Below, piece after piece: positions 6,003 to 25,938 of a stretch of 36,439 nucleotides of DNA. Both the position numbers and the translations under genes were made by a program. How positions within the stretch are numbered: the stretch's first letter is position 1; the number at the start of each line of letters is the position of its first letter. The DNA comes from an uncultured Candidatus Saccharibacteria bacterium. GTDB taxonomy: Bacteria; Patescibacteriota; Minisyncoccia; Phycocordibacterales; GWA1-40-21. The stretch covers positions 1 through 36,439 of the forward strand of contig CAYVWL010000002.1 of NCBI GenBank assembly GCA_964455475.1, written 5' to 3'. Under the pieces are notes generated by a model. That model saw nothing but the letters and a program-made list of their open reading frames with translations. It did not search any database and was not told the origin of the DNA.

Positions 6003-9000
6003 GTGATGAAAAGGTTTCGACAATATAAAAATCTATTTATTTTTCTAGGAATATTTATATTCTTCTTTTTTATTTCAACCACGGACACTTTTGCTGCGAA
6101 CCGGTATTGGGTGGGGCCAAATAATGGTGATTTCAAGACAAATGCCAATTGGTCAACCTTATCTGGCGGTACTGGTGGCGCAAGTTATCCTCAGTCAGCA
6201 GATACGGCTATCTTTGACTCGGGAAGTAATAATTGTATTATTGCTGGTACAAATTTTACTATTGGTGTTGTTTCAATAACCAGTGGTTATTCTGGAACCA
6301 TAACAAACAATGTGACAACATTGACCGTCCCGAGCTTTTCTCAAGCGGGTGGCACATTTACAAATAACGTCAATTTGTCTTTGAGCACCACTTTTTCTTT
6401 ATCGGGAGGGGTATTTAACGCTGGGCCAGGTGTTAATGTTGGTGTTGGCACCTGGACACAGTCTGGAGGAACCTATAATCATAATAATGGAACCATTTCA
6501 TTTTGGGGGGCTAATACAATAAATGTACCGACTAGTATTACATTTTATAATTTAAATCTTGGAGCCGCTTCAGGTATTACTATAACCACTACTGCCGGCG
6601 ATACGCTGATCGTGGAGGGAACCCTTACCATGTGCACATACTCTGTGGCGACGGTCTTTACCGGGGGGACAATTGAAGCTAGAGGAAATATAAATATTCT
6701 CGCTAATACTAGTGGAACTACGGCTATCAAGGTTGGCGGAGGAGTAGCTACTACCACCTGGACGGGAAATACAAAAACCGTGAGTAATTCGGTAGAAATT
6801 GCCAAGACCGCCGGTACAGTAATAGATTTTGGTAGCGCACAAGCTTTTTTTGGGGGTAATTTTACCATCACCTCGGGAACTGTTTTAGCCCCTAGCACCA
6901 GAATGCATTTTTCTGGAGCTGGTTGGACACAAAATGGTGGAGTATTTACCCCTAATACTGGTGGTTATGTAAGTATGAATGGAAATATTACCTTGAATGT
7001 GCCAACGAATATTACTTTTTATAATTTCTATTATGGTGGTAGCACACTCAATCTTAGCGGTGATACAGTGATAGTTACCAACGCCTTTGACCCAGCTTGG
7101 TGGGGAACAGCTGGTGGAAGTACTATTAACAACGGAACAATTGAGGTGCAGGGAAATATGGTCTTGAGTGGTAATACCACCAACGGAGCAACTGGCGTCT
7201 TTAAATTTACTGGCACAGCTGATCAATCTATTTCCGGCAGTTTTACCTCTTACAATCCGGTGAATATAGCCAAGACCGGTGGGACTCTGACTGTGACTGG
7301 CATGGCCATGTATAATACTTTGACCTTTACTTCCGGTACAACAACCTTTTCTACCTTGACCAATTATTCTGCAACCGTCTTTAACGGTGGAGTGGTAAGC
7401 GGAACCTTTACAGCTTATTCTGGAAATGTAACCTATAATGGTGGTACTTTGACGGGCTTGTCCTTATCACTTGGTGGTAGTAATGCTTATATTTTAGGTA
7501 CGTTTTTTACGGTGGCAAATCTGACCGTCAGTAAGTCGAACGGGGCGTTTATAAATCCCGCCAACGCTGTTTATATTACCGTCACCGGTACCACCACCCT
7601 GTCGGACGGAGTAATTAGTAGTGACGCTGGGACATATAATGGCTATATCCTTGCGCAAGGGAATGTGGTAATCGGCTCGGGCTGGGATGCTGGTAGTTGT
7701 AGTGGAAGTCTACGCTTTGGCGGTACAAATGATCAAACGGTTTCAGCTAGTGCGGGTTTCTGTTCTGCTGTTTATATAAATAAAACTGGCGGTACCCTAA
7801 ATGTCGGTACCTGGACTGTTTCTTCAAGTCCTCTATATTTTCAGGCCGGGACGACGACTGGTTCATTGACAGCTTCTGCTAACAATATTACATATACGGC
7901 TGGTAATATATCTGGATTATCACTCACATTGTCTGGCGGAACCAAGTATATTTATGGTTCGCCGTTTACCGTGGCAAACTTGACCGTGAGTAAGACGAGC
8001 GGAAACGCTATAAATCTCGCCAACGCTGTTACTATTACCGTCACCGGTACCACCAACCTGTCGGACGGAGTGATAAGTACTGATGACGGAACTTTCAATG
8101 GTTATATTATCGCTCAAGGTAATGTAACCGTTGGAGCTAATTGGGACGCTGGTAGTTGCTATGGTAGTTTGCGTTTTACTGGCTCGGCTGATCAAACAGT
8201 CACCTCTAGCGCAGTTTTCTGTTCACCTATCTATGTGAATAAAAGTAGTGGCACTTTAAATATTGGTAACTGGACTAGCTCTGGAGCCATGTATTTCCAG
8301 GCGGGGACAGTCACTGGAAATATTACATCAGCTGGTGGAAATACTATTACATATAATGCTGGCGATATCAGTGCAGTAAATCTTACGGTCACTGGTATAG
8401 CTAGTGTGTTTGATGTCTCACCAAATGGTTCAGCCACGATTAATAGTTTGAATATGAACAAGGCCGGATCCACAGGATTTTATATTGGGTCAAGTGACAC
8501 CCTGATAGTGACCAGTACTACCACTCTTACTGACGGTTATTTCAATAGTAGTGCTTCATATACTGGTATTTTACAGGCACAAGGTGATGTGACTATTGCG
8601 TCCACTTTTGATAGCACTACTGCCTATGGAGGTTTACGATTTGCTGGCACTGCTAATCAAAATTTTTCATCTGCTATCTCCTGGACGGGCAATGTGTCGG
8701 TGACCAAGACAGCGGGGACAATCACTAATACCACTAATATTGTTCTGACCTCTTCTGCTATCACAGTACCAAGTGGGGCCACCTGGGATTTAAATGGTTT
8801 CAATTTTTCGCCAAGCGGTGGCTATACCATGGCTAGTGGTTCAACCCTGCGTTTAAAGGGAAGTGAAGTGACAGTGACTTCTCCAACATTAAGTTCTGGT
8901 AGTACGGTGGAGTATTATGGGACAGCTGTTTCGCAAACAATTAAGGCTTTCAACTACGCAAATAGTAGCTTGATTATCAATACCGGTGCCACGTCGGTGA

Positions 9001-11585
9001 ATTCACTGGCTGGAAATATCTCTGTTGCCACCACCACTATTACTTCTGGTATTTTATATTTGGCAGGATACAATCTCTCATCCACTGTCATTTCTAACAG
9101 CGGAACATTGCGATTAAAAGGTTCTGAAACTATCGCCTCTACTAATTATGGTGCCAATATTGGAGTAGTAGAATATATCGGTGATGGAGATGGCGCCTCG
9201 GATATTTATGGTATTAGCAATTTACCTTATCTTACTCTAAATCTAAACTCCACCGACAGTGCTGATATTTACAGTGATGCTGTTCCTCTGTCTATAACAA
9301 AATATAACAATGCTATTCCAAATACTTCGGACGGAGCCTCTACAGCAGGTAGGATACCGATTGGTACTTCAGGCAAGGGTGATGACGTGCAGATATATGG
9401 CTCGACAATTATTAAGGATGGAAGTATTTATAAGGCCTGGTATTCTGGATATGACGGTGCAACCTATAGAATATATTATGCCACCTCACCAGATGGCTTG
9501 GTTTGGACAAAGTATAATAATACTATACCTGCCAATTCAGACACCACTTCTACCGATGGCCGAATCCCTTTGGGTTCAAATGCCAGGGGAGATGATCTTC
9601 ATGTCTATGGACCAAATGTCATCAAGGATGGATCGACTTACAAAATGTGGTATAGCGGTCATGATGGAGCAAGTGTTAGGATTTTCTATGCTACTTCGCC
9701 AGACGGACTAACCTGGACAAAGTATAACAATGCCACTCCGAATGCCTCTGATACTACTTCAACCGATGGCCGAGTTCCGCTTGGTACTAATACTAAAGGT
9801 GATGATGCGAATACTTATTTCCCGTCAGTTATTTTAGAGGGCGGAACCTATAAGATGTGGTATGCCGGCAACGATGGTACGAATATTCGTATCTACTACG
9901 CCACCTCACCCGATGGCCTGGTCTGGACAAAGTATGATAATACTTCGCCAGCAAATTCCAATACCTCTTCCACAAACGGCCGAGTTCCGCTAGGGACAGA
10001 CACTTATGGTGATGATCTACATACTTATCAGCCGTCAGTCATTAAAGATATAAGTGGTCTGTATTTTATTCTATACACAGGCAATGATGGTACAAATGCG
10101 AGAATTTATTTAGCTTCTTCACCCGATGGTCTGGTGTGGACCAAGTATGGCAACACTACTCCGTCTGATTCTAATACAAATTCAACCGCTGGTCGCATAC
10201 CCATTGGTTCAAACACCAATGGTGACGATGTTGGCACTTATTGCCCCGTAATAATAAAGGATACAGATAATTATAAGATATGGTATTCAGGAAATGATGG
10301 GACAAATCTCTCACTATATTATGCCACTTCTCCATTTGGTCTAAATATTAATAATGATTTAAATGTTTCTGGTGGTGGTAATAGGCCGAGCGGACCAATA
10401 AATCTCGGCGGTAGTCTGGTTCAAACTGGCGGAACACTTTCAATGAATTATGTGGATTTAATTCTAAATGGTAGTAATCAGGCTCTCACTATCCTCGCCA
10501 CCACCACCCTCGCTAGTTTGAATAAATCTGTTATTTCGGCCGATACTTTAACCTTTACCGCTGGCGTGCCACTCGTCGTGACGGGAACCACCACCTTAAA
10601 TGGAATAGCTGATAATATTTTATCTCTCGTCTCATCCAGTCCAGAAACACAATGGCAATTTGATCCACAAGGTGGGAGAGATTTCTCTTACATAGATGTT
10701 ACGGACTCTTGGAATATAAATGCTGTGGAAATAGATTCTAGTGCTATCACTGGTTTTAATGATGGTGGAAATAATACCGGCTGGGGTTCTTCACAAGCTG
10801 TGGTAACTGTCGGTAAATCTGGCACACAAATCGCCACCACCACCATGCCAGTGACAAATCTTGACCTAGGTGGTGCCTTTACCTTAAACGCTACGGATGG
10901 TGATGCGGATATCACCTCCATCAAGATCAAACAAATCGGCTCTCTCGCTACCACCTCCATCACCAATGTGGAATTGTTCTACAAGGAAGAAGTGACATGT
11001 TCCACTAGTAGTTTGCCTGGAGGTGCTGTTTCCTTTGGTGTCGCTGACGCCTTTGATGAAAAGGGTATTGCCACCACTACCGGTAGTCTCACTCTGACGG
11101 ACGGTGTGCAAACCTGCCTTTATATTCAATATGATTTGCCGGACACCTACAGCACCTCCACCCTCGGGCGCAGTATTGATTTTGAAATTACCAATCCAGC
11201 CACCGATCTCACTGTCGATGGGGGAGCGGTCACCACCTCCGCCAAAGTAAATATCTCTGGCCGCACTATTGTCAGTACCACCGATATTACCTCCTTGCTT
11301 TCCTTAAAGTCTGGTGTAAATGCCGAGGATGTCACCGTCTTCTTCCTCCAAAATGATGCCGTCTGGAAAATGGTCAATGGTGGCACACCAATTCGTCTAA
11401 CAAACACTAATCTAAAAGTCCACTCCCTAACCTTCTCAGACTTTACGGCTGGTAGCAGTGGGGGCACAGTGAAAATCACCATGGTTATTTCCAATATTGA
11501 TGCTGGTACAGACCCTAATTTCCTCAGCGTCACCCGCACCTATACTACCACCGCTACGGTCAAGGCGTGGGGAGGGAATGATTAA
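6003..11585 (+). CDS. Giant secreted/surface repeat protein (1860 aa): signal anchor, beta-helix-like repeat modules, five propeller-like Asp-box repeats, C-terminal beta-rich region
   Basis: Uninterrupted 5.6-kb ORF. N-terminal hydrophobic segment LFIFLGIFIFFFFISTTDTFA, followed by RYWVGPNNGDFKTNANWS...GGTGGASYPQSADTAIF, a motif common at the start of large bacterial surface proteins. T/G/S/N-rich composition. Internal tandem repeats are listed separately. Confidence 0.85.
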   Translation: MMKRFRQYKNLFIFLGIFIFFFFISTTDTFAANRYWVGPNNGDFKTNANWSTLSGGTGGASYPQSADTAIFDSGSNNCIIAGTNFTIGVVSITSGYSGTITNNVTTLTVPSFSQAGGTFTNNVNLSLSTTFSLSGGVFNAGPGVNVGVGTWTQSGGTYNHNNGTISFWGANTINVPTSITFYNLNLGAASGITITTTAGDTLIVEGTLTMCTYSVATVFTGGTIEARGNINILANTSGTTAIKVGGGVATTTWTGNTKTVSNSVEIAKTAGTVIDFGSAQAFFGGNFTITSGTVLAPSTRMHFSGAGWTQNGGVFTPNTGGYVSMNGNITLNVPTNITFYNFYYGGSTLNLSGDTVIVTNAFDPAWWGTAGGSTINNGTIEVQGNMVLSGNTTNGATGVFKFTGTADQSISGSFTSYNPVNIAKTGGTLTVTGMAMYNTLTFTSGTTTFSTLTNYSATVFNGGVVSGTFTAYSGNVTYNGGTLTGLSLSLGGSNAYILGTFFTVANLTVSKSNGAFINPANAVYITVTGTTTLSDGVISSDAGTYNGYILAQGNVVIGSGWDAGSCSGSLRFGGTNDQTVSASAGFCSAVYINKTGGTLNVGTWTVSSSPLYFQAGTTTGSLTASANNITYTAGNISGLSLTLSGGTKYIYGSPFTVANLTVSKTSGNAINLANAVTITVTGTTNLSDGVISTDDGTFNGYIIAQGNVTVGANWDAGSCYGSLRFTGSADQTVTSSAVFCSPIYVNKSSGTLNIGNWTSSGAMYFQAGTVTGNITSAGGNTITYNAGDISAVNLTVTGIASVFDVSPNGSATINSLNMNKAGSTGFYIGSSDTLIVTSTTTLTDGYFNSSASYTGILQAQGDVTIASTFDSTTAYGGLRFAGTANQNFSSAISWTGNVSVTKTAGTITNTTNIVLTSSAITVPSGATWDLNGFNFSPSGGYTMASGSTLRLKGSEVTVTSPTLSSGSTVEYYGTAVSQTIKAFNYANSSLIINTGATSVNSLAGNISVATTTITSGILYLAGYNLSSTVISNSGTLRLKGSETIASTNYGANIGVVEYIGDGDGASDIYGISNLPYLTLNLNSTDSADIYSDAVPLSITKYNNAIPNTSDGASTAGRIPIGTSGKGDDVQIYGSTIIKDGSIYKAWYSGYDGATYRIYYATSPDGLVWTKYNNTIPANSDTTSTDGRIPLGSNARGDDLHVYGPNVIKDGSTYKMWYSGHDGASVRIFYATSPDGLTWTKYNNATPNASDTTSTDGRVPLGTNTKGDDANTYFPSVILEGGTYKMWYAGNDGTNIRIYYATSPDGLVWTKYDNTSPANSNTSSTNGRVPLGTDTYGDDLHTYQPSVIKDISGLYFILYTGNDGTNARIYLASSPDGLVWTKYGNTTPSDSNTNSTAGRIPIGSNTNGDDVGTYCPVIIKDTDNYKIWYSGNDGTNLSLYYATSPFGLNINNDLNVSGGGNRPSGPINLGGSLVQTGGTLSMNYVDLILNGSNQALTILATTTLASLNKSVISADTLTFTAGVPLVVTGTTTLNGIADNILSLVSSSPETQWQFDPQGGRDFSYIDVTDSWNINAVEIDSSAITGFNDGGNNTGWGSSQAVVTVGKSGTQIATTTMPVTNLDLGGAFTLNATDGDADITSIKIKQIGSLATTSITNVELFYKEEVTCSTSSLPGGAVSFGVADAFDEKGIATTTGSLTLTDGVQTCLYIQYDLPDTYSTSTLGRSIDFEITNPATDLTVDGGAVTTSAKVNISGRTIVSTTDITSLLSLKSGVNAEDVTVFFLQNDAVWKMVNGGTPIRLTNTNLKVHSLTFSDFTAGSSGGTVKITMVISNIDAGTDPNFLSVTRTYTTTATVKAWGGND
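7434..8810 (+). repeat. Three tandem 459-bp (153-aa) coding repeats inside the giant ORF
   Basis: Units start at 7434, 7893 and 8352, each beginning Y-N/T-G/A-G. Units 1 and 2 are highly similar (FTVANLTVSK..G.AIN.ANAV.ITVTGTT.LSDGVIS.D.GT.NGYI.AQGNV..G..WDAGSC.GSLRF.G..DQTV). Unit 3 has diverged. Earlier modules at similar spacing are marked by NVPT.ITFYN. Confidence 0.85.
9300..10349 (+). repeat. Five tandem 210-bp (70-aa) coding repeats with Asp-box-like SPDGLxWTK motifs (5-bladed beta-propeller candidate)
   Basis: Units start at 9300, 9510, 9720, 9930 and 10140. Consensus KYNN..P..SDT.ST.GR.PLG....GDD...Y.P.VIKDG..YKMWYSG.DG...RIYYATSPDGLVWT. Confidence 0.85.
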
Positions 11586-14653: not shown

Positions 14654-17113
14654 ATGGCAAAAAAAGAAAATGAAATAAAGGAGGTGGTGGCAGAGCGTGG
14701 TATTTCTCAGAGAAATATTACGACCGAGATGAAGGAGTCATTTATTGACTATGCCATGACCGTGATTACAGACCGTGCTTTGCCGGATGTACGTGATGGT
14801 TTAAAGCCGGTACATAGGAGAATTTTGTATGCCATGCATGAGATGGGCCTGACCGCCGGCGCCAAGACCAGAAAGTCCGCCGCTGTCGTGGGAGAGGTGC
14901 TGGGAAATTATCATCCGCACGGTGATGCGTCCGTGTATGAAGCCATGGTGAAAATGGCGCAAGATTTTTCTCACCGCTATCCACTGATTATTGGTCAAGG
15001 AAACTTTGGAAACATTGATGGGGACTCGGCCGCCGCTATGAGGTATACCGAGGCCAAGATGTCCAAGATTTCCGGCGAGCTTTTGAAAGATTTGGAAAAG
15101 GAAACAGTAGAGTGGCGCCCAAACTATGATAATACGCGCAAGGAGCCCGAGGTCTTGCCGGCGGCCCTGCCAAACTTACTATTAAACGGCACCCTGGGTA
15201 TCGCTGTGGGTATGGCCACCAATATTCCACCACACAATTTGAAAGAGGTGGTGGAGGCGACCGTGCATTTGATAGATAATCCAGAGGCGACGACTGAAGA
15301 TTTGCTAGGTTTTATCAAGGGCCCGGATTTTCCCACTGCTGGTGTGGCTTATAATCAGACCGATATAAATCATGCTTATGCCACCGGACGAGGTGGAGTG
15401 GTGGTGCGCGGTGTCGCGGAAATAGTGGAAGACAAGAAGGGTACTTACCAAATAATTATCACTTCTATCCCTTATCGTGTGAACAAAGCCGAGCTGATCA
15501 TGGCGATTGCGGATTTGGTTCGGGAGAAAAAGGTGGAAGGTATAAAAGGCTTGCGGGATGAGAGTGCCAAGGATATTCGTATTGTGATAGACCTAAAATC
15601 CGGCGCCCAGCCACAAAAGGTTCTTAACTTTATTTACAAACATACCCAGCTAGAGGAATCATTTCATTACAACCTGGTGGCGCTCGTGGATGGCGTACCT
15701 CAGACTTTGTCCCTGAAATCATTCCTGGATGAATTTGTAGATCATCGCAAGATTGTGGTGAAGAGACGAACGGAATTTGATTTAAGAAAGGCAGAGGCCC
15801 GAGAGCATATTTTGTTTGGCTTGAAAAAGGCACTGGATCATATTGATGAGATTATAAAACTCATTAAAAAATCCAAGGATATTGAAGATGCCAAGAGGAA
15901 TCTGATGAAGGAATTCAAATTCTCCGAGATCCAGGCCCAAACGATTGTGGATATGAAGATTGGTCGCCTCACTGGCCTGGAAAGGCAAAAGATTGAAGAT
16001 GAATTAAAGGAAGTGCAAGCCTTGATAAAATATTTAAAAGATTTATTGTCTAGTGCCAAGAAGATTTTGGCGGTGGTGAAAAGCGAATTGCAGGAGACCG
16101 CGTTGAAATATGCGGATGATCGGCGCACCCGAATTGTGAAGCAGGGCGTGGGCTCCATGTCTGATGAGGATTTGATTCCGGATGAGGAAAATGTGCTCGT
16201 GCTCACCACTGGTGGTTATGTGAAGAGGACCAGTCCGGATGATTATAAAAAGCAAAAGCGTGGGGGAGTGGGGGTGGTGGATTTGGACACCAAGGACGAA
16301 GACTTTGTCGTGAATTTCCTCATTGCCACGACGCACAATGATATTCTTTTCTTTAGTGATAAAGGTAAGGCTTATCAGATCAAGATGCATGAATTGCCAG
16401 AGGGCAAGCGCGCTACCAAGGGCAAGGCGCTAGTGAACTATCTGTCCATCTCTCCAGAGGAAAAAGTGACCTCGGTTTTGGCGATGCCAAAAGAACTTAA
16501 AAATTCCAAATTAGCGCTCATGATGGTGACCAAGCAAGGCGTGGCCAAAAAGGTGGATGCCTCGGCTTTCCATGATGTACGCCGAAGTGGCCTGATTGCT
16601 ATCAGTCTGCATGATGGGGATGAGCTGACTTCCGTGCAGTTTGTAGCGCCAACAGATGAAGTGATACTGGCAACCGCCAAGGGTCAATCCATTCGCTTTA
16701 AAGAAAGTGATATCAGGGAGATGGGGCGGGGGGCAGCGGGAGTGCGTGCGGTCAAGCTTTCCAAGAATGATGCCGTGGTCAGTACGGATGTGGTGAAGAA
16801 GACTATGGTGAACCCAACTTTCTTTGTGATTAGCTCAAACGGTTATGGCAAGAAAACGGCGCTCAAGGAATATAAAGTGCAAAACCGTGGGGGTTCTGGT
16901 ATTAAAACGATGAAGGTGACGGGGAAGACCGGGGATATCATGTCGGCTCGAGTGATGACGGATGAACAGGATGAAATAGCGGCTATTTCCAAGAAGAGCC
17001 AAGTTATCCGCGTGGAGACCAAAGAAATTCCTACTCTCGGCCGGCAAACCCAAGGGGTGCGCATCATGAAATTACGTGATGGAGATTTCTTGGCGTCGGT
17101 TACTTGTCTATAA
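14654..17113 (+). CDS. gyrA: DNA gyrase subunit A
   Basis: [61 protein letters not shown] and [11 protein letters not shown] (catalytic Tyr context). C-terminal beta-pinwheel repeats include a GyrA-box-like [11 protein letters not shown]. Confidence 0.97.
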
Positions 17114-17138
17114 AAACTATTCGCGTTATAATATACGC

Positions 17139-17669
17139 ATGTTCTCGGATCCGGAAAATAATATAAAACAATTTGCCTTGGCCTCGGGGATGCAGGTGGC
17201 GGATTTTGGATCGGGGTCCGGATTTTATTCCATGGCCGCCGCCAAAGAGGTGGCTCCGTCTGGACGGGTTTTTGCCGTAGATATTCAGAAAGATTTACTG
17301 GAGAAATTAAAAAACGGCGCCCGACAAAATCATTTAAATAATATTGATATTATCTGGGGGGATCTGGAGCATTTGGGTGGCACCAAATTACGAGAGAACT
17401 CTATGGATGCGGTGATTGCATGCAATCTATTTTTCCAGATAGAGAATAAGGATGGTCTGTGTCTGGAGGCCAAGCGTATTTTACGTCCTAATGGCCGGGT
17501 AATGGTAGTGGATTGGGCTGGGTCATTTGGCGGTCTTGGTCCCACAGAAAAAGATGTGGTTAGTAAGGATAGCCTGACACATATTTTCGAGGAGCACGGC
17601 TTTGTCCTGGATAGGGAAATTAGCGCCGGGGCACATCATTATGGTCTTATTTTTAGAAAAACAAAATAA
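17139..17669 (+). CDS. Class I SAM-dependent methyltransferase
   Basis: Motif I VADFGSGSGFYS; later DAVIACNLFFQ and LRPNGRVMVVDW. Start moved to ATG 17139 because the longer ORF (17076) overlaps the gyrA end. TATAAT at 17127-17132 lies 6 nt upstream. Confidence 0.75.
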   Translation: MFSDPENNIKQFALASGMQVADFGSGSGFYSMAAAKEVAPSGRVFAVDIQKDLLEKLKNGARQNHLNNIDIIWGDLEHLGGTKLRENSMDAVIACNLFFQIENKDGLCLEAKRILRPNGRVMVVDWAGSFGGLGPTEKDVVSKDSLTHIFEEHGFVLDREISAGAHHYGLIFRKTK

Positions 17670-18968
17670 ATGAAAAACAGTAAATTATTTCAATACATTG
17701 TCTTTGGCCTCTTTATCTTTTTTATTATCGTTGGTGCTATCCTCTTTTCCACCTATCGCTCGACAGATAAAAATGCCGTCGCCGTAGATATTACCATGTG
17801 GGGCACTCTGCCGTCAGAGAACTTTAGTCCTTTTGCTACCGATTACTTTAACAAAGCGGGGTTAAAATATTATGTAAAATATGAACAGCGGGATCCAGCC
17901 ACTTTTGATGCCGATTTGGTGGAAGCCCTCGCCTCCGGTACTGGCCCAGACGCCATTATTTTGCCAGATGACTTGATTGTCCGCTATAGCAATAAGATTT
18001 ACCCTATTCCTTATACTATTCTGCCCGAGCTAAATTTCAAACAGACCTTTATTCAAGAAGGTGAATTATATCTGACTAATAGTGGAGTCTTAGCCCTGCC
18101 GTTTATGGTGGATCCACTGGTCATGTATTGGAATAGGGATATGTTTAACAATGTGAGCGTGACCAAGCCCCCGGCCACCTGGGCCGATATTTTGGCCCTA
18201 GTGCCAAAGATGACCAAGAAGGATCAGAATCAAAATATTTTAGCCAGCACCGTGGCCCTGGGTGAATTCCGCAATGTAAATAATGCCAAGGATATTTTAA
18301 GTGCCTTGATGATTCAGTCCGGTAATCCACTCGTCAAATCAAATTCTGACGGTTCATTTCAGAGTACTTTAAATTATGATTTTGGCCTGAGTACTTCACC
18401 GGCAGTCCTGTCCCTACAATTCTTTACTAATTTTTCCAATCCCACCAAGGCTAATTATTCCTGGAACCGCTCTCTACCAAGCTCTATAGACGCTTTTGCC
18501 AATGGTGATTTAGCACTATATTTTGGTTATGCCTCCGAGTATCTGAAAATAAAAAATAAAAATCCAAATCTGAATTTTGATGTGGCTCTTCTCCCACAGA
18601 TTGCCGGTGCCAAGATACTGAATACCTTTGGGAAAATATCCGCTTTTGCTATCATGAAAAATTCAGCGGATCCAGCCGGTACCTTTACGGTCCTATCCGC
18701 CTTGACCAGCGCTTCGGCTTTTCCGTTCTGGAATCCTGTTTTCAATTTACCATCAGCTAGGCGAGATATTTTAAGCCAGGTGGACCAGAGTCCCGCTAAA
18801 ACCATCTTTAACAAGAGTGCTGTTATGAGCAAAGGCTGGCTGGATCCAAACCGGGCCCAAACCAGCAGTATTTTCCAGGATATGGTAGAATCATTTACGA
18901 CCGGGCGGGAAAGCCTGGACTCTGCGGTTAGTACCGCGTCAGATAGATTGGATGGTTTGTTAAAATAA
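17670..18968 (+). CDS. Membrane-anchored extracellular solute-binding protein (family 1 SBP-like), with no transporter partners nearby
   Basis: N-terminal TM (FQYIVFGLFIFFIIVGAILF). SBP-like stretches GTGPDAIILPDD, ALPFMVDPLVMYWNRDMF and KPPATWADIL. The ATG directly follows the TAA of the methyltransferase. The stop overlaps the next ATG (TAATG at 18966-18970). Confidence 0.65.
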   Translation: MKNSKLFQYIVFGLFIFFIIVGAILFSTYRSTDKNAVAVDITMWGTLPSENFSPFATDYFNKAGLKYYVKYEQRDPATFDADLVEALASGTGPDAIILPDDLIVRYSNKIYPIPYTILPELNFKQTFIQEGELYLTNSGVLALPFMVDPLVMYWNRDMFNNVSVTKPPATWADILALVPKMTKKDQNQNILASTVALGEFRNVNNAKDILSALMIQSGNPLVKSNSDGSFQSTLNYDFGLSTSPAVLSLQFFTNFSNPTKANYSWNRSLPSSIDAFANGDLALYFGYASEYLKIKNKNPNLNFDVALLPQIAGAKILNTFGKISAFAIMKNSADPAGTFTVLSALTSASAFPFWNPVFNLPSARRDILSQVDQSPAKTIFNKSAVMSKGWLDPNRAQTSSIFQDMVESFTTGRESLDSAVSTASDRLDGLLK

Positions 18969-19393
18969 TGTATTTGATTAATAATAAAAAATTTTTTGCT
19001 GGCATATTTTCTCTTCTGTTTTTAATTTTGCCTTTATTGTCTTATTCAGCACTTATTGATTGTAATATTGCTACAACAACCCCTACCGCAACAAATCCAT
19101 CTGGCTTTGTAAAACCCTGCAATTTTTCTACTTTTGTAGAAACAATAAACCGAATTATTAATTGGATTATTAGTATTGCTGGGGTAATATTCACCATCTC
19201 TGCTATTTGGGGCGGTTTTCTCTATATGACTTCGGGGGAGAAGCCGGCTAACAAGGAAAAGGCTAAAAGTATACTCTGGAATACTTTATTGGGATTTGTT
19301 ATAATATTGGTAGCCTGGCTCATCGTATATACAATACTAGTTAATTTGGTAAAAGATGGAGGTGCAAATTCGATTTTTAGATTCTTACAATAA
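18968..19393 (+). CDS. VirB2/TrbC-like (T4SS-pilin-type) small membrane protein, paralog 1
   Basis: Signal peptide, a Cys pair (IDC...KPC), then TM1 (IISIAGVIFTISAIWGGFLYM), a charged loop (TSGEKPANKEKAKS) and TM2 (LLGFVIILVAWLIVYTIL). This architecture is typical of proteins annotated as pilin in CPR and Gram-positive T4SS loci. Confidence 0.65.
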   Translation: MYLINNKKFFAGIFSLLFLILPLLSYSALIDCNIATTTPTATNPSGFVKPCNFSTFVETINRIINWIISIAGVIFTISAIWGGFLYMTSGEKPANKEKAKSILWNTLLGFVIILVAWLIVYTILVNLVKDGGANSIFRFLQ

Positions 19394-19394
19394 A

Positions 19395-19748
19395 ATGAAA
19401 AAATTCTTACCACATATAATAGCTTCATTTGCAATAATGTTTCCATTGTTCTTGTTTGCCGGGCCTAGTGGTTACACTATAGATAATCCACTAAAATCAA
19501 ATGATGTGAAGGGTATTTTGATGGATGTTATGAAGCTGGTAGCTACTGTCGGTGCGATAATTGTGGTTTTCTTTATAATTTATTCTGGTTATAAGTTTGT
19601 GACTGCTAGAGGTGATCCAGGCAAGATTGAAGAGGCTAAGAAAACCTTTTATGCCACTGTCATCGGGGGAGCTATTCTACTTGGGGCGGATATTATTGCT
19701 AATATCGTGGTAAATACGGTTAAGACCACAACTGGTACCACTTTTTAA
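19395..19748 (+). CDS. VirB2/TrbC-like small membrane protein, paralog 2
   Basis: Start taken at MKKFLPHII (ATG 19395, 1 nt after the preceding stop). Signal peptide, TM1 (LVATVGAIIVVFFIIYSGYKFV), loop ARGDPGKIEEAKKT, TM2. Confidence 0.65.
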   Translation: MKKFLPHIIASFAIMFPLFLFAGPSGYTIDNPLKSNDVKGILMDVMKLVATVGAIIVVFFIIYSGYKFVTARGDPGKIEEAKKTFYATVIGGAILLGADIIANIVVNTVKTTTGTTF

Positions 19749-19770
19749 TTATTATTTAATCTTCATTTGA

Positions 19771-20124
19771 ATGAAAAAAATTATATACATTTTCTACTCA
19801 TTCGTTCTTCTGGCCCTAGCTATTCCCGTATTTGGAGCTCCAGCTACCACTTTTAGAAGTTTAATTGACAATACTATAATAGGAGGAATATTGAAGCCTC
19901 TCGTGCCCCTTCTTATTGGGCTTGCAGTAATAGTCTTTATATACGGAGTACTCTTACTTATGTTTTCCGAGGGAGGAGAGAAGAAGGAAGAGGGCAAGCA
20001 ATATATGCTCTGGGGAATTATTGGTATTTTTGTGATGGTATCAGTCTGGGGTCTGGTGGCCATACTTAGTAATACTCTTCAGTTGGATAACGCCCCAAAA
20101 ACCGTCAAAATCGAATTGAAGTAA
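19771..20124 (+). CDS. VirB2/TrbC-like small membrane protein, paralog 3
   Basis: Signal peptide MKKIIYIFYSFVLLALAIPVFG, TM1, loop SEGGEKKEEGKQ, TM2 (MLWGIIGIFVMVSVWGLVAIL). Confidence 0.6.
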   Translation: MKKIIYIFYSFVLLALAIPVFGAPATTFRSLIDNTIIGGILKPLVPLLIGLAVIVFIYGVLLLMFSEGGEKKEEGKQYMLWGIIGIFVMVSVWGLVAILSNTLQLDNAPKTVKIELK

Positions 20125-20150
20125 GTACAGACTCCCTGTGGATACCTTGT

Positions 20151-20179
20151 TTGCTGATTTAATGATAAAAAGTTATAAT
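20151..20179 (+). promoter_or_regulatory. Internal promoter within the pilin-like array
   Basis: TTGCTG (20151-20156), 17-nt spacer, TATAAT (20174-20179), in the only long (110-bp) gap of the array. Confidence 0.5.
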
Positions 20180-20234
20180 TATCAGGTAAAAATAATCAAA
20201 GGTCGTAAATTTATTAATCGCTTAGGATAAAATT

Positions 20235-20624
20235 GTGAAAAAAATTATAATCAGTCTGGGTTTAACTATAATAGTAGGGTTACCTATGCTGGTTTTAGCT
20301 CAGACTAGTATAAATTCACTTTTTGTTAGTGCCAGGACCATTCTAAACAGCGCAATTATATTCCTGATCTCCCTTGCTGTCTGTTGGTTTATCTGGAATG
20401 TGATTCAGTATGCTATCGCCCAGGATGAAGAAAAAAAGGGAGACGCAAAAGGTCAAATGGTCTGGGGGATAATTGCTATCGCTGTTATCGTATCAATCTG
20501 GGGTTTGGTGAATATCTTGCAGGTACTTTTTGGAACCAAGACTGATAAAGCCAAGACCAATTCAGAACTAGAGAATATGATACCCGGGGTAGTCTTGCAA
20601 ATAGAAAATATAGCAGAAGTTTAA
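20235..20624 (+). CDS. VirB2/TrbC-like small membrane protein, paralog 4 (GTG start)
   Basis: Signal peptide, TM1 (FLISLAVCWFIWNVIQY), loop AQDEEKKGDAKGQ, TM2 (MVWGIIAIAVIVSIWGLVNIL). Shares a 30-nt identical block (20376-20405) with paralog 5 (20831-20860). Confidence 0.6.
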   Translation: MKKIIISLGLTIIVGLPMLVLAQTSINSLFVSARTILNSAIIFLISLAVCWFIWNVIQYAIAQDEEKKGDAKGQMVWGIIAIAVIVSIWGLVNILQVLFGTKTDKAKTNSELENMIPGVVLQIENIAEV

Positions 20625-20659
20625 AAATATTTATTAGTTTATTAATTTATTAAAATAAT

Positions 20660-21028
20660 ATGAAAAAAATTGTCAAAATTGGAGTGGGATCACTTTGGGC
20701 TTTGCCTTTTATGGCACTAGCAGCGGGTGCGGCAGGTACTGTCGATGGTAGTTATTTAACTGGCTTATTTGATAATGCAAAATGGATATTGGATAAAGTA
20801 GTTGTCTTTCTTATTTCCTTGGCTGTCTGTTGGTTTATCTGGAATGTGATTAGTTATACCATATCAGAGGATGAGGAAAAGAAGGGTGCGGCCAAGAGCC
20901 AGATGATCTGGGGTATTGTGGCTATCGCTGTCATCGTTTCCATTTGGGGTATAGTGGCTATCCTTCAAAATCTGTTTGGAGCGGGTGGTGGAACGGCTAT
21001 AACTCCAGCAGATCTTCTCCCACAATAA
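20660..21028 (+). CDS. VirB2/TrbC-like small membrane protein, paralog 5
   Basis: Signal peptide, TM1 (FLISLAVCWFIWNVISY), loop SEDEEKKGAAKSQ, TM2 (MIWGIVAIAVIVSIWGIVAIL). Looks like a recent duplicate of paralog 4. Confidence 0.6.
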   Translation: MKKIVKIGVGSLWALPFMALAAGAAGTVDGSYLTGLFDNAKWILDKVVVFLISLAVCWFIWNVISYTISEDEEKKGAAKSQMIWGIVAIAVIVSIWGIVAILQNLFGAGGGTAITPADLLPQ

Positions 21029-21034
21029 TATCAA

Positions 21035-21295
21035 ATGCACGGTACACCTATAGCTACAAATACGTTAATACAAAATATATTAGATAATATTGTAAATCCA
21101 ATAGTCACTTTGATGCTGGCTGTTGCACTGATAGTCTTTCTCTGGGGTGTTTTCCAGTTTGTTCGTAATGCGGAGAGTTCGGAAGAAAGAAGGACTGGCG
21201 GGTTTCATATGATGTGGGGTGCTATAGGTCTATTTATCATGGTGACAGCATATGGAATATTGAATTTGATTTTAGGGACGATAGGGAAGCAATAA
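21035..21295 (+). CDS. VirB2/TrbC-like small membrane protein, paralog 6 (no obvious signal peptide)
   Basis: Two TM segments flank the loop NAESSEERRTGG. Same core layout as paralogs 1-5. Confidence 0.5.
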   Translation: MHGTPIATNTLIQNILDNIVNPIVTLMLAVALIVFLWGVFQFVRNAESSEERRTGGFHMMWGAIGLFIMVTAYGILNLILGTIGKQ

Positions 21296-21325
21296 TTATT
21301 TTGGTTGCCTTCAAATATTAATCAG

Positions 21326-21364
21326 CAAAAAACACCCCTCGCCAAACAGCTCAGGGTGCTTTTT
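21326..21364. terminator. Possible bidirectional terminator at the left edge of the G+C-rich island
   Basis: A-run, CACCCC (21333-21338) ... AGGGTG (21353-21358), T-run. The stem is short and the loop large, so the call is weak. Confidence 0.35.
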
Positions 21365-21412
21365 GATGCCGTTCATCACGGCACCAACTCTACTAGGTTT
21401 GGAAACCTCCTC

Positions 21413-22039
21413 TTACTCCATCGTCCCAATCAGGCTGCAGATCGCCACTGGTCCATCTGGTAGCCAGGTAATTGTCCCTGACCAGGCATTTGTCCCCGTC
21501 TCACGCATATCTACCCGACTGTGTTCCTTTGGCCTGTCCTGGTCCCTATCTCCGGACCAAGTTTTGCCTGCCTTCAGTCCGACCCTGCCCAGACGTATCC
21601 TTTCCCTTTCTGGCCTACCAAATTCGATGTAGGGAACATCGAAATACAGGGATTCGGTGCTGTTTTCAATCATCTCAGCCACCGTTACTTCATCGGCGTT
21701 TCTGTTTCGTCCGTGGATGTACTCCCCAGACGGAACGTACCATGTCCACCGGTACACCATCTTTTGGGTACGGGCAACTGGTATCTGACTGACACTGAGA
21801 GGAGCTGGCAACGCAGGATTATTCAGTCTGCTCTCCTCCTGGGCCTTCTGCTCACGTTGCCGATTCTGAGTCATCTCCCGAAAGAGAGGCACGAGAATCA
21901 GTGCGATAATAAGCGCCGACACTGTGATCAGCCAAGGCTTCTTCCTCCCCGCCGTCCCTTTCATCGCTTTCCAGGCCCACACGATCAGGACGATAATGAG
22001 TAGGCTAACGAGCAGAAATTCTACATGTACAACGGTCAT
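21413..22039 (-). CDS. Hypothetical membrane protein (two N-terminal TM segments plus an unrecognised soluble domain)
   Basis: ORF with a strong SD (AAAGGAGAGACTC-ATG). TM1 FLLVSLLIIVLIVWAW, TM2 WLITVSALIIALILVPLF. Composition is G+C-rich relative to the flanks. No family recognised. Confidence 0.6.
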   Translation of the reverse strand: MTVVHVEFLLVSLLIIVLIVWAWKAMKGTAGRKKPWLITVSALIIALILVPLFREMTQNRQREQKAQEESRLNNPALPAPLSVSQIPVARTQKMVYRWTWYVPSGEYIHGRNRNADEVTVAEMIENSTESLYFDVPYIEFGRPERERIRLGRVGLKAGKTWSGDRDQDRPKEHSRVDMRETGTNAWSGTITWLPDGPVAICSLIGTME

Positions 22040-22052
22040 GAGTCTCTCCTTT

Positions 22053-22079
22053 GGGTGGCGAGGACATTCCTCGCCACCC
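22053..22079 (-). promoter_or_regulatory. Perfect 11-bp intercistronic stem-loop between the two island genes
   Basis: GGGTGGCGAGG-ACATT-CCTCGCCACCC. It lies between the stop of the SPFH-like gene (22088) and the SD/start of the downstream gene (22039). Confidence 0.7.
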
Positions 22080-22087
22080 GGTGTTGA

Positions 22088-23245
22088 TTACTTCGGTTCC
22101 GGCTTCTTGCTTCCAGCTTGATCAAGATTGATTAGGGAGTTACCCCCAATCACTTGAGGCTTTGCAATCTCAATCGCCAGCGCCATTGCTTGCTCGGGAG
22201 TGAGATCTCTCTGTGCCACGAGTCGGCGAAGCACCTGATTTACCATGAGACTGGCAGCTTCGGCTGTTCCTTGGCCTTCCAGTATACGCTTCTCTCTCTC
22301 AGCCCTCGCCGTTACTACCAGGTTGTCTGCAGCAATTGCTGTAGTCTTGGTTGAGGCATAGGCTGCCGCTATGGCTTCCGCGCCACCTCCAGAGAGCTCG
22401 ATTCCGATTATGTCGATCGAGATCAGGGTGTAGCCGGTAGCCTCACTCAATGTGCCGAAACCGCAGTCCTTACTGTTGAGCTCTTTTGTGAGCCCCATCA
22501 GGTAGGCCGGCCCTCTAGCATTCTTGAGTTTTAAGGCCTCAGCGTAATCCATATCTCCGGCTGTCTCCCTCAACCCTTGCATGACATGAGCCTTCAGGAT
22601 CTTGATACTGCCACGATTCTTTATCTTGGCGATATAGGCATTGGTCATCTTGAAAGTAATGACCACATCCCAGTCGATCTTCGACGCCAGATCCGCAAGC
22701 TCTAGTCCTGGCACTAACAACCTTTCTGTGGATTGGATCGGAAGGTATATGACATCAGAGTATGGTGTCACCTTCATGCCAACCGAGCCATTCGGCTCAT
22801 TGACAAGCTTGACCTGTTCAGTATCGAAAGTCATGGCACCATGAAGGGGCCACAAGCCGATCCAGGTAAATCCCAGCCCAGCACTAGAAGTACTGTCAGA
22901 GTCCTCCGTAATCTCCCCACCTGGATGAATGGTGTGACCTCTCATCGCTCCGATAGCTCGGTCGAACTCGCCATTCTCAATGCCGTAATAGAGTAGGGAT
23001 ACAAACCCTTCTCTCTTAGCATAGATAAATAAGGCCTTCTTCCCGAGAATGTACAGAGCCATCATCATGCCGGCAAGGACCGTCAGGGCGAAAAATCCGT
23101 ACACCAGGACATCCACCCAGCCCAATTTGATTGTCAGAATAGTCTCCTTGTTTACAGAATAAGCCCAAAACGAAAGGGCCAAAACTGTGAGAACCCGGAG
23201 TATCATTGCCAGAACCTTCATTGTCTCTTCTCCTCTGCGCATCAT
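22088..23245 (-). CDS. SPFH/band-7 (stomatin/prohibitin/flotillin-like) membrane protein
   Basis: Two N-terminal TM segments. The central beta/alpha region ends in ISIDIIGIELS, followed by an Ala/Glu-rich helix (AAAYASTKTTAIAADNLVVTARAEREKRILEGQGTAEAA), as in SPFH proteins. The assignment is from memory of family patterns. The likely true start is ATG 23221 (MKVLAMIL), preceded by GAGGAGAAG. Confidence 0.5.
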   Translation of the reverse strand: MMRRGEETMKVLAMILRVLTVLALSFWAYSVNKETILTIKLGWVDVLVYGFFALTVLAGMMMALYILGKKALFIYAKREGFVSLLYYGIENGEFDRAIGAMRGHTIHPGGEITEDSDSTSSAGLGFTWIGLWPLHGAMTFDTEQVKLVNEPNGSVGMKVTPYSDVIYLPIQSTERLLVPGLELADLASKIDWDVVITFKMTNAYIAKIKNRGSIKILKAHVMQGLRETAGDMDYAEALKLKNARGPAYLMGLTKELNSKDCGFGTLSEATGYTLISIDIIGIELSGGGAEAIAAAYASTKTTAIAADNLVVTARAEREKRILEGQGTAEAASLMVNQVLRRLVAQRDLTPEQAMALAIEIAKPQVIGGNSLINLDQAGSKKPEPK

Positions 23246-23404
23246 GCGCGTCGTACGTTACTACACTAAGCTAGTTTCCAAACCTGTCAAAGAACAGGCA
23301 GTAGGACGGGCTTTTGCCCTCCTCTGCAAGCCTTTAGGCAGGTCAGAGAAGGGAACACCCCTCCTTGTAATCTATCTATAATACTAGCATATTTGAATCA
23401 AAAA

Positions 23405-24400
23405 GTCAAGGAAAATGTTATGGTTCAATAGCTTGGAAACACTTCCCCATATATACTATGAAAATGTCATACACAAAGAATCCGTATCTCCCCAAGGTCC
23501 GTCAGGACGCCGCCGACTTGGTCCGTCGCGGTTGGGGCGTGAGAAAAGTCGCCAGATATGTCGGGGTCAGTCCGGGGACGATCACCAAGTGGGTTAAGAG
23601 AGCTAAGGTAATTGGCTACCACCCCATCCCCACCCTGTCCTCACGACCAAAACATCATCCGCGACAACTGAGCAGTGAATTGGTTTGGAAAATATATCAT
23701 AAACGAGTTCAGATTAAACGGAGCGCCGAGGTGGTCAGACAGGAATTGATCAACGAAGGAATACCGGTGTCCCTGTCTTCGGTCAAACGAACTTTAGACC
23801 GGATGGGTTTGCTAAACAAGAGAAGTCCGTGGAAACGATATCATTTGCCAATCCAGCGACCAGACGTCCAAAAACAAGGTGATTTGGTGCAAATTGACAC
23901 TGTTCACCTTCTGAACGAACATGGGAAAAGAGTGTACGTTTTCACTTTGCTTGATGTGTATTCACGATATGCTTTTGCTCGCGCCTACGAACGAGCGACT
24001 TCAGCCACCGCTTTTCGTTTTCTGAATTGGTGTCAGAAGCAAGTAGATTTCAAATTCCAAACCGTCCAAAGTGACAACGGTTCCGAGTTCGCTGGTTGGT
24101 TCAGTGATCATATTAAATCCGTCCACCGACATACCAGAGTGCGAAGACCAAATGACAATGGACACCTGGAGAGATTCAACCGCACGGTGCAAGAGGAATG
24201 TTTGGACAAGGTGGAAAAGAAAGTTTCGAAGATCAATCAAGCCCTGACAAAATACATGAAATATTACAACGAAAAACGTCTGCATTTTGGGTTGAATTTG
24301 CAGACACCTTTACAAGCTTTAACTAACAAGTGTTTCCAAGGTATTGATTAGAATACGGGAAAATAAGGAGAGAGCAAAAGCGAGCGACTATATTTTCCTA
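23405..24400 (+). mobile_element. IS481-family-like insertion sequence (boundaries approximate)
   Basis: Single DDE transposase ORF. An imperfect terminal inverted repeat is possible: AAGGAAAATGTTATGG near 23411 against the reverse complement of CGACTATATTTTCCTAT near 24385-24401 (an AGGAAAAT core plus scattered matches). No direct repeats seen. Confidence 0.5.
23458..24351 (+). CDS. IS481-family DDE transposase (HTH + rve integrase core)
   Basis: N-terminal HTH (RRGWGVRKVARYVGVSPGTITKWVKR). DDE candidates in LVQIDTVHL, VQSDNGSEF and NGHLERFNRTVQEE, with retroviral-integrase-like spacing. Confidence 0.8.
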   Translation: MKMSYTKNPYLPKVRQDAADLVRRGWGVRKVARYVGVSPGTITKWVKRAKVIGYHPIPTLSSRPKHHPRQLSSELVWKIYHKRVQIKRSAEVVRQELINEGIPVSLSSVKRTLDRMGLLNKRSPWKRYHLPIQRPDVQKQGDLVQIDTVHLLNEHGKRVYVFTLLDVYSRYAFARAYERATSATAFRFLNWCQKQVDFKFQTVQSDNGSEFAGWFSDHIKSVHRHTRVRRPNDNGHLERFNRTVQEECLDKVEKKVSKINQALTKYMKYYNEKRLHFGLNLQTPLQALTNKCFQGID

Positions 24401-25218: not shown

Positions 25219-25938
25219 TTATCTATGCTTCTTCAATATATCCTTAATTTTACTAGTGAATCTCTCTGATCTTAAATACAAATATTCCTTAAATGTGTTG
25301 TATTTTCTTCTCATAAATAAGTCACTATCCACATTATTATACATAAATTCAAATAATTTCATAGTGTCTGTAGTGTTGTAACGTAGTTGATATGATCTAT
25401 GGCTAGTATATATTTTGAAGTTCTTCTTATTTGTAATATGGTTAATTGATGTCCCTAAACCTGTAAGGAAGTCAGTACTTCCACTAGTGAAAGCGATTAG
25501 TAATCTTTTCAAAATAGATTGACCATTTATTCCAATTGATTTCTCTAAATAAACGCATCCATCTCCATCAAAATATCCTCTGATAAAATGCCTAAGTTGG
25601 GTATTTGGTACTTTTGGAAATTTCACGTTAAGTGATTTATTTGGGTATAAACCTATCTCACCCAATCTGGCATATAGTCTGTGACTACCAATTCTCAGAG
25701 TATACCTAGTCTGTCTAGTTTCAACTAATTGTGCCTCAACCTTTATCTTATGCTCAGATTTCAATAGCTTTTTAAACAATATGATCCGATCCTTATCTAT
25801 ACTAGTTACAGATATGTATCTTGCTCTTATATAACTGCAGTCAGATAGGCTACCATCTGCATAGAGATATCCAAGAACGTAGGCCATTTCTGGTCCCCAT
25901 TTGTGGAAGAATTCCTCATTTATTTTATGTTTGAACAC
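25219..25938 (-). CDS. LAGLIDADG homing endonuclease, free-standing, two-motif (monomeric type)
   Basis: Motifs LGYLYADGS and IRGYFDGDGCV, about 100 aa apart. Very AT-rich. GTG start 6 nt downstream of a TATAAT box. The stop lies 3 nt from the 5' end of tRNA-Cys. Confidence 0.85.
   Translation of the reverse strand: MFKHKINEEFFHKWGPEMAYVLGYLYADGSLSDCSYIRARYISVTSIDKDRIILFKKLLKSEHKIKVEAQLVETRQTRYTLRIGSHRLYARLGEIGLYPNKSLNVKFPKVPNTQLRHFIRGYFDGDGCVYLEKSIGINGQSILKRLLIAFTSGSTDFLTGLGTSINHITNKKNFKIYTSHRSYQLRYNTTDTMKLFEFMYNNVDSDLFMRRKYNTFKEYLYLRSERFTSKIKDILKKHR

Follow-up and report, generated by a model that had tools for sequence, protein, structure and literature searches.

Why does a stretch of bacterial genome lined with housekeeping genes carry six consecutive genes for small, pilin-like membrane proteins, with no ATPase or channel gene of the kind that such pilins would need? 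The stretch, called the window here, is contig CAYVWL010000002.1 of assembly GCA_964455475.1, deposited for an uncultured Candidatus Saccharibacteria bacterium; it is 36,439 nucleotides long and makes up the whole of contig C2 of the genome, which is termed G000 (654 kb in 60 contigs, 95% complete). The genome is within the Paceibacteria/Parcubacteria, and its relatives carry names of the Paceibacterota/Parcubacteria, including Taylor-, Nomura-, Adler-, Kaiser- and Lloydbacteria. Around the array lie pheS, pheT, gyrB, the gene for an S1 protein, gyrA, infB, rbfA, clpB and a sigma factor gene. An earlier reading of the letters alone (the original prediction) had described six tandem VirB2/TrbC-type pilin paralogs and no secretion ATPase or channel gene in the 36 kb. 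Both statements agree with our domain scans, in which none of the scanned window proteins (long open reading frames not largely overlapped by a longer one) contains an ATPase or channel domain of a type IV secretion system (T4SS). We consider it quite probable that the six proteins are VirB2-like pilins of a Patescibacteria-type T4SS, forming an ancient, fixed set that is served by a machine encoded at a separate locus. The six genes, P1 to P6, are the following.

18968..19393, + strand: pilin P1, 141 amino acids; leader, Cys32...Cys51 loop and helical hairpin; PF18895 at 54.6 bits; support of the P1 clade 98/83.
19395..19748, + strand: pilin P2, 117 amino acids; PF18895 at 39.9 bits and TrbC/VirB2 PF04956 at 32.0 bits; P2 clade 100/99.
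19771..20124, + strand: pilin P3, 117 amino acids; PF18895 at 37.4 bits; P3 clade 97/83.
20235..20624, + strand: pilin P4, 129 amino acids, GTG start; PF18895 at 33.2 bits; 53% identity to P5.
20660..21028, + strand: pilin P5, 122 amino acids; PF18895 at 32.9 bits; P5 clade 97/83.
21035..21295, + strand: pilin P6, 86 amino acids, leaderless; PF18895 at 45.6 bits over profile positions 3-71.

Successive genes are separated by 1, 22, 110, 35 and 6 nucleotides, with the start of P2 set at MKKFL and not at an overlapping ATG at 19356. Pairwise identities among the six proteins lie between 20 and 53%, the highest being that of P4 and P5. In a hydropathy scan, P1 to P5 each show an amino-terminal hydrophobic leader followed by two hydrophobic helices, while P6 contains two helices and no leader; loops rich in glutamate and lysine, visible in the alignment, connect the helices. 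The VirB2-type layout of a leader, two helices and a short charged loop is thus that of P1 to P5, their leader cleavage being predicted. In P1, cysteines 32 and 51 are located just after the leader. The original prediction had given all six a common layout, usually with a signal peptide, which holds for P1 to P5, P6 having the two helices only; it had also singled out the Cys-Cys loop of P1 and the missing signal peptide of P6, and both are real and conserved in relatives.

Profile searches with T4SS pilin models assign the proteins to known families, and in Pfam only pilin families scored above cut-off. The T4SS_pilin family PF18895 (gathering cut-off 26.6 bits) matches 6/6 array proteins at 32.9–54.6 bits. 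The TrbC/VirB2 family PF04956 (27.9 bits; cut-offs refer to the whole-protein score) matches P2 at 32.0 bits, with P1 (15.2) and P6 (10.8) below the cut-off and P3 to P5 not listed. When the whole genome was scanned with PF18895, the array's six proteins and one more, on contig C16, were found. In NCBIfam, all six match best to NF045849, the Mbov_0395 family of pilin-like conjugal transfer proteins, at 27.9–36.4 bits, below its cut-off of 40 bits. The AlphaFold2 model of P6, made with 146 family members, is a helix-loop-helix (helices 6-44 and 49-84) with a pLDDT (predicted local distance difference test score) of 86.8. The top match of the family sequence profile in the PDB is the pKM101 VirB2 pilin TraM (8cw4), although this match is weak, with E = 0.017.

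Compared with the pilins VirB2 of Agrobacterium, TrbC of RP4, TraA of F and TraM of pKM101, the array proteins share the leader, the two helices and the short charged loop, the predicted helical hairpin, one member (P2) above the TrbC cut-off, and TraM of pKM101 as the best PDB sequence match of their profile. They differ from these Gram-negative pilins in having a monoderm host, in being six or seven paralogs rather than one, in having a leaderless member, in leaving five of six below the TrbC cut-off, and in not being adjacent to virB3/virB4. Several divergent virB2 copies in a row are also found in Bartonella and Anaplasma phagocytophilum, likewise host-dependent bacteria; antigenic variation is the supposed role of the copies there, whereas the paralogs of our genome are conserved ortholog groups with position-fixed features. 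The Mbov_0395 family, from an integrative and conjugative element (ICE) of Mycoplasma, provides the best NCBIfam match and comes from a wall-reduced monoderm with a system of the MPF-FATA type, but no score reaches the cut-off, and Mycoplasma has a single gene of this kind, inside the ICE.

The closest counterparts are in the Patescibacteria themselves, for which such arrays have been published (PMC7427843, PMC10633639, PMC12102498), so that the rarity implied by the original prediction does not stand. McLean and co-workers reported in 2020 that Saccharibacteria carry 4-6 small Sec-targeted proteins in an array next to VirB4 and VirB6, noted it in other candidate phyla radiation (CPR) members, and in the same work the 'Sec-secreted array' of Nanosynbacter lyticus TM7x was compared to pertussis toxin (PMC7427843). 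In Southlakia epibionticum ML1, the T4SS cluster contains six PF18895 genes (SEML1_0014-0019), and Wang and co-workers found in 2023 that each of them is essential in transposon sequencing (Tn-seq; PMC10633639). Quinonero-Coronel and co-workers reported in 2025 a total of 441 arrays of 2-11 pilins, with a mean identity of 25% and a maximum of 54%. An array is defined there as pilin genes in tandem or with one non-pilin gene between them; the arrays were counted in the vicinity of virB4 (Fig. S9 legend), are richest in Microgenomatia and Saccharimonadia, and are suggested by the authors to reflect adaptation to different host strains (PMC12102498). A 2025 review considers the Patescibacteria T4SS unique among monoderms in its potential for conjugative-type pili (PMC12857230). 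With six genes, gaps of 1-110 nucleotides and identities of 20-53%, where the published values are 25% on average and 54% at most, the array in the window falls within that definition. It also resembles the Patescibacteria arrays in family membership (PF18895, sometimes PF04956), in its tandem arrangement, in having six genes as in Southlakia, and in the presence of a monoderm-type T4SS (VirB4, TrsD, PrgI) near dnaA in the same genome lineage, virB4 being placed by synteny. It is unlike them in lying away from the virB4 neighbourhood.

The original prediction had suggested that the array stands apart from any T4SS, but a VirB4/TrsD/PrgI locus is present in the lineage near dnaA, where the T4SS is placed in the published Paceibacteria pattern (PMC12102498). 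The seventh, solitary pilin is located on C16 near dnaA, dnaN and yidC; contig C21 ends with TrsD-like and PrgI-like genes, and C16 with the pilin side of the locus. In two relatives of the same genus, G010 and G015, the genes are arranged in the order 703aa-247aa-PrgI-TrsD-VirB4-245aa-pilin-421aa, followed by yidC, rnpA and dnaA. The left half of this order stops, in G000, 40 nucleotides short of the C21 end (10781), and the right half begins inside the 245-amino-acid gene at the C16 end (14379). The two contig ends match the two halves of the order, and virB4 therefore falls in the assembly gap. Contigs of the source metagenome extend past both ends, and many virB4-like pieces from co-occurring relatives are present in it, which would probably explain the assembly break. 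The last 40 nucleotides of C21 were inspected for the amino-terminus of VirB4; they contain four codons (MNYV), too few to judge.

Among 31 related genomes, 15 of them from the same genus as G000, a VirB4 of 605 amino acids is present in 28, including 14 of the 15 same-genus genomes, and is 72-85% identical to the query, a protein from another genus of the family. This query was used because the Pfam profile CagE_TrbE_VirB (PF03135) is too insensitive for the clade, giving sub-threshold matches only, in 5/31 relatives. The VirB4 of the relatives matches NCBIfam NF045971 ('VirB4-like, CD1110 family'; 372.7 bits, cut-off 325). VirB4 and the array occur together in almost all relatives, in support of the T4SS link, and the pilin that adjoins the virB4 operon is the solitary seventh one only. 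Directly after the solitary pilin, a conserved protein of about 420 amino acids is encoded (C16:12077-13327; in relatives, for example, L041:7049-8311). It has a weak match to DUF5050, which is beta-propeller-like, and may be one more component of the T4SS or of a pilus.

The search of the genome for VirB4, VirB6 and VirD4 that had been proposed as a check gave a divided result: VirD4-like proteins were found, and VirB4 and PF04610 were not found in the G000 assembly. The two paralogous VirD4/TraG-like coupling ATPases (C51:649-2346, 565 amino acids; C35:1-2765, 921 amino acids) match each other in phmmer with E = 1e-101, the longer one having an amino-terminal extension of about 500 amino acids, and neither is near a pilin or VirB4 locus. 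Large P-loop reading frames on C7, C29 and C36 were set aside: judged from their sequences they look like a Clp-type AAA+ ATPase, a VWA-type and a MoxR-type protein, and neither of the type IV coupling proteins was matched by phmmer. The Walker-A regular expression used at first does not catch P-loops of the VirB4 type (AxxGxGKS). TrbL/VirB6 (PF04610) has no match in the genome; a 722-amino-acid protein upstream of PrgI is a VirB6 candidate.

Within the window, the array is preceded by two genes on the same strand.

17076..17669, + strand: methyltransferase dependent on S-adenosylmethionine (SAM), Pfam Methyltransf_31/11/25; its stop abuts the start of the next gene.
17670..18968, + strand: orphan MalE-like solute-binding protein (SBP), membrane-anchored, 432 amino acids; SBP_bac_8 and SBP_bac_1, with weak MalE/sugar-SBP matches.

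The membrane anchor of the SBP is at its amino-terminus, and its stop codon overlaps the start of P1 (TAATG at 18966-18970). Because the stop and start codons overlap or abut, the methyltransferase and SBP genes and the six pilin genes are likely to form one operon; promoter and terminator consensus scans around it gave nothing usable. In four freshwater metatranscriptome runs, contigs identical to parts of the SBP gene, P4, P5 and P6 are present, some of them spanning the P4-P5 and P5-P6 junctions, and P4 to P6 appear to be co-transcribed, at low depth. T4SS pilins rank with the most strongly expressed genes of unknown function in cultured Paceibacteria (PMC10936435).

The coupling of the SBP to the array is conserved far beyond G000. 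In a survey of related species with the SBP as query and one genome per species, 62 loci had at least 3 kb of downstream sequence, and in 61 of these a pilin array directly follows the SBP stop, typically within about 40 nucleotides. The number of pilin genes in these 61 loci ranges from 3 to 9, with five being the most frequent and six the next; the single exception also contains pilin genes, five of them, but not immediately behind the SBP. Upstream, a methyltransferase homolog is found in 66/67 related loci and gyrA in 48/53. In a sample of 151 evenly drawn Patescibacteria genomes, an SBP homolog is present in 125, nearly always as a single copy. Forty SBP loci were retrieved from this sample, and in 27 of them the SBP homolog is followed by 1-9 same-strand pilin genes. 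The downstream reading frames of these phylum-wide loci matched PF18895 in 99/100 tested and PF04956, at E <= 0.001, in 36/100 members.

In this respect G000 is unlike the published arrays: its array adjoins genes for an orphan SBP and a methyltransferase, with gyrA beside them, while the Southlakia array has no such SBP beside it, and the terms solute, substrate-binding, SBP and gyrA do not occur in the T4SS survey (PMC12102498). Pilin arrays as such have already been described; what differs here is the separation from virB4, the coupling to the SBP and methyltransferase genes, and the six fixed subtypes. Going beyond what we found in print are the SBP link (61/62 related and 27/40 phylum-wide loci) and the leaderless last pilin (60/65 arrays).

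In some genomes, the T4SS_pilin domain is located inside far larger reading frames of about 620-1240 amino acids, which could be pilins with adhesin-like domains (for example G024:C4:23423-23620, G020:C32:29333-29527, G028:C4:45895-46095, L162:2441-6157, L176:1901-3760 and L182:1961-3907). In the phylum-wide pilin set, one member also matches PKD domains and another a Y_Y_Y domain.

In the reading that we favour, the six pilins would be made from a single operon, headed by the methyltransferase and SBP genes. P1 to P5 would be Sec-dependent precursors from which the leader is removed, and leaderless P6 would insert directly into the membrane. The mature helical hairpins, of roughly 70-110 amino acids, would then form a pool in the cell membrane, from which the VirB4/TrsD/PrgI machine would extract and polymerise them into a mixed-subunit pilus or conduit on the host cell. 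A heteromeric assembly is plausible. The SBP may, speculatively, work with the filament, for example as an adhesin or substrate catcher. Judging from the literature on the biology of the Agrobacterium, F and pKM101 pili and on Southlakia Tn-seq, the role is probably not conjugation.

Several points weigh against this reading. To our knowledge, none of the Paceibacteria has been seen to bear a pilus. Five of the six array proteins stay under the TrbC/VirB2 Pfam cut-off. When the P6 model was compared to the PDB with Foldseek, nothing was found at E <= 0.001; the best pilin in the list, the conjugation pilin of Aeropyrum (8dfu), is at rank 4 with E = 1.3 and TM 0.50, and the comparison does not discriminate, because the hairpin fold resembles other hairpins. 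VirB4 is missing from the G000 assembly, so its presence in this genome rests on synteny. In relatives, the array and virB4 are on different contigs or, in the complete relative G019, about 250 kb apart. The RNA contigs have a depth of 2-5, at which DNA carry-over is possible, and they speak for presence, not for absence.

The main rival draws on the separation of the array from virB4. The six hairpins would form a T4SS-independent membrane assembly together with the SBP, a channel or docking ring that replaces a lost ATP-binding cassette (ABC) permease and acts as an uptake or host-sensing device. The overlap of the SBP stop with the P1 start, the SBP-array link in related and phylum-wide loci and the lack of linkage between array and virB4 are what would be expected of such a complex. 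So is the distribution of permeases: BPD_transp_1 (PF00528) has no match in G000, with 14/14 control genomes positive, and it is absent from 23/31 relatives, including 100% complete genomes that keep the SBP-pilin module. As G000 and most relatives are without this permease, the SBP is unlikely to serve a classical ABC importer. But the proteins are of the T4SS pilin family, VirB4 and the array co-occur in almost all relatives, the seventh pilin lies inside the VirB4 locus, and the six-gene array of Southlakia is located inside a T4SS cluster with no such SBP adjoining. We therefore judge an assembly independent of the T4SS to be unlikely.

A bolder version of the favoured T4SS reading takes the SBP into the apparatus. 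The SBP-pilin operon would be a distinct, phylum-wide module in which the MalE-like SBP is a functional part of the T4SS filament, either an adhesin at its tip or base or a catcher of host-derived sugars, and the six fixed types, with the Cys-loop pilin first and the leaderless one last, would build an ordered heteromer. We hold this tentatively, as a possibility with the odds against it.

A second rival, the leading idea of the original prediction, regards the six genes as a cassette of recent, fast-diverging and interchangeable pilins that gives one filament antigenic or host-range variation. The paralogs are indeed very divergent (20-53% identity), the length of the array varies across the phylum from 3 to 9, and adaptation to host strains was suggested for such arrays by Quinonero-Coronel and co-workers (PMC12102498). 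P4 and P5 also share an identical block of 30 nucleotides, from which the original prediction had deduced ongoing duplication.

20376..20405, + strand: first copy of the 30-nucleotide identical block, in P4; encodes AVCWFIWNVI.
20822..20851, + strand: second copy, in P5.

The block is real, but its second copy had been placed at 20831-20860, 9 nucleotides off. It lies within a 179-nucleotide repeat of 74% identity. Identical runs between P4 and P5 within one genome are 30 nucleotides in G000, 31 in G008, 25 in G013 and 98 in G014, all of different sequence, and orthologs from different genomes share identical runs of only 9-24 nucleotides. The blocks differ from genome to genome and exceed the cross-genome runs, and therefore point to short-tract gene conversion rather than to new copies. 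The 30-nucleotide block fits a sporadic event of this kind between P4 and P5, the two youngest neighbours.

The array was compared in relatives, as had been proposed. It contains six genes in 10 genus genomes and five in 3, and from three to eight in the order. Counted over whole genomes, PF18895 genes number 6-7 in 13/15 other genus genomes, the remaining two having 1 and 0; 29/31 relatives contain 4-9, which is also the range of those order-level relatives that have any. In a tree built by maximum likelihood from 76 pilins of 13 genus genomes, P1, P2 and P3 are each monophyletic with bootstrap values of 97-100%, the last genes form one clade and the P5 clade is nested among P4 sequences; the three arrays of the genus that have five genes are without the P4 type. 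Orthologs from different species are about 49-76% identical, generally more than the paralogs within one genome. Features of the subtypes are fixed by position: the P1 cysteine pair after the leader is present in 13/13 genus orthologs and in most of the order, and the last gene of the array, with two hydrophobic segments only, is leaderless in 60/65 arrays. By these comparisons the six genes appear to be an ancient, fixed and non-redundant paralog set of six positional ortholog groups across the genus, and not the product of ongoing duplication. Each paralog having its own ortholog clade over 13 species, and all six Southlakia pilins being individually essential (PMC10633639), antigenic variation by recent duplication, and with it the cassette, is very unlikely.

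The remaining possibility, that these are other small membrane or secreted proteins such as holins, immunity proteins for bacteriocins or, as in pertussis toxin, toxin subunits secreted through Sec, is the least credible of all: small size, leaders, two hydrophobic helices and the tandem of 4-6 beside Saccharibacteria T4SS genes (PMC7427843) would suit it, but none of the six has a PHROG family at E <= 0.01, the two pilin families are their only Pfam matches above cut-off, and two membrane-spanning helices fill most of the mature protein, which does not suit a soluble toxin subunit.

Other features of the window were noted in passing. Just past the array, the stretch 21296-24400 has a G+C content of 48-52%, compared to 36-38% in the array. 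It contains two minus-strand genes (385 and 208 amino acids) without Pfam match and an rve-type integrase gene (23458-24351), adjoins a cluster of four tRNA genes and is without synteny to G013; the 208-amino-acid protein has two homologs in G003, beside that genome's own array. Contigs from the RNA runs match 21406-21556 and 21854-22004 within this stretch. A giant reading frame of 1860 amino acids (6003-11585), flanked by gyrB and the gene of the S1 protein, shows a GH130-like match only, which is weak and partial. The gene for a BRO-N domain protein (1029-1883) has pheS on one side and pheT on the other. A LAGLIDADG-type reading frame (25219-25938) adjoins tRNA-Cys and has a homolog of 63% identity in the equivalent place of G013.

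The favoured T4SS reading introduces no new kind of system, but gives a sharper picture for the Paceibacteria. The T4SS of Patescibacteria has proved essential to epibiotic growth where tested, in one species; it is without a relaxase and has pilins, which is unusual for a monoderm. An old, position-fixed set of pilins argues for a structured multi-subunit filament over antigenic variation, and since an array can sit far from the motor genes, surveys limited to the neighbourhood of virB4 undercount such arrays. The interest lies mostly in the SBP linkage and in the fixed six-subunit design. The near-constant coupling to a permease-less, sugar-type SBP provides a concrete starting point for tests of what is bound or taken up by the apparatus and, if the SBP should prove to be a working part of the filament, would tie the essential, unexplained T4SS of these epibionts to the capture of nutrients or host glycans.

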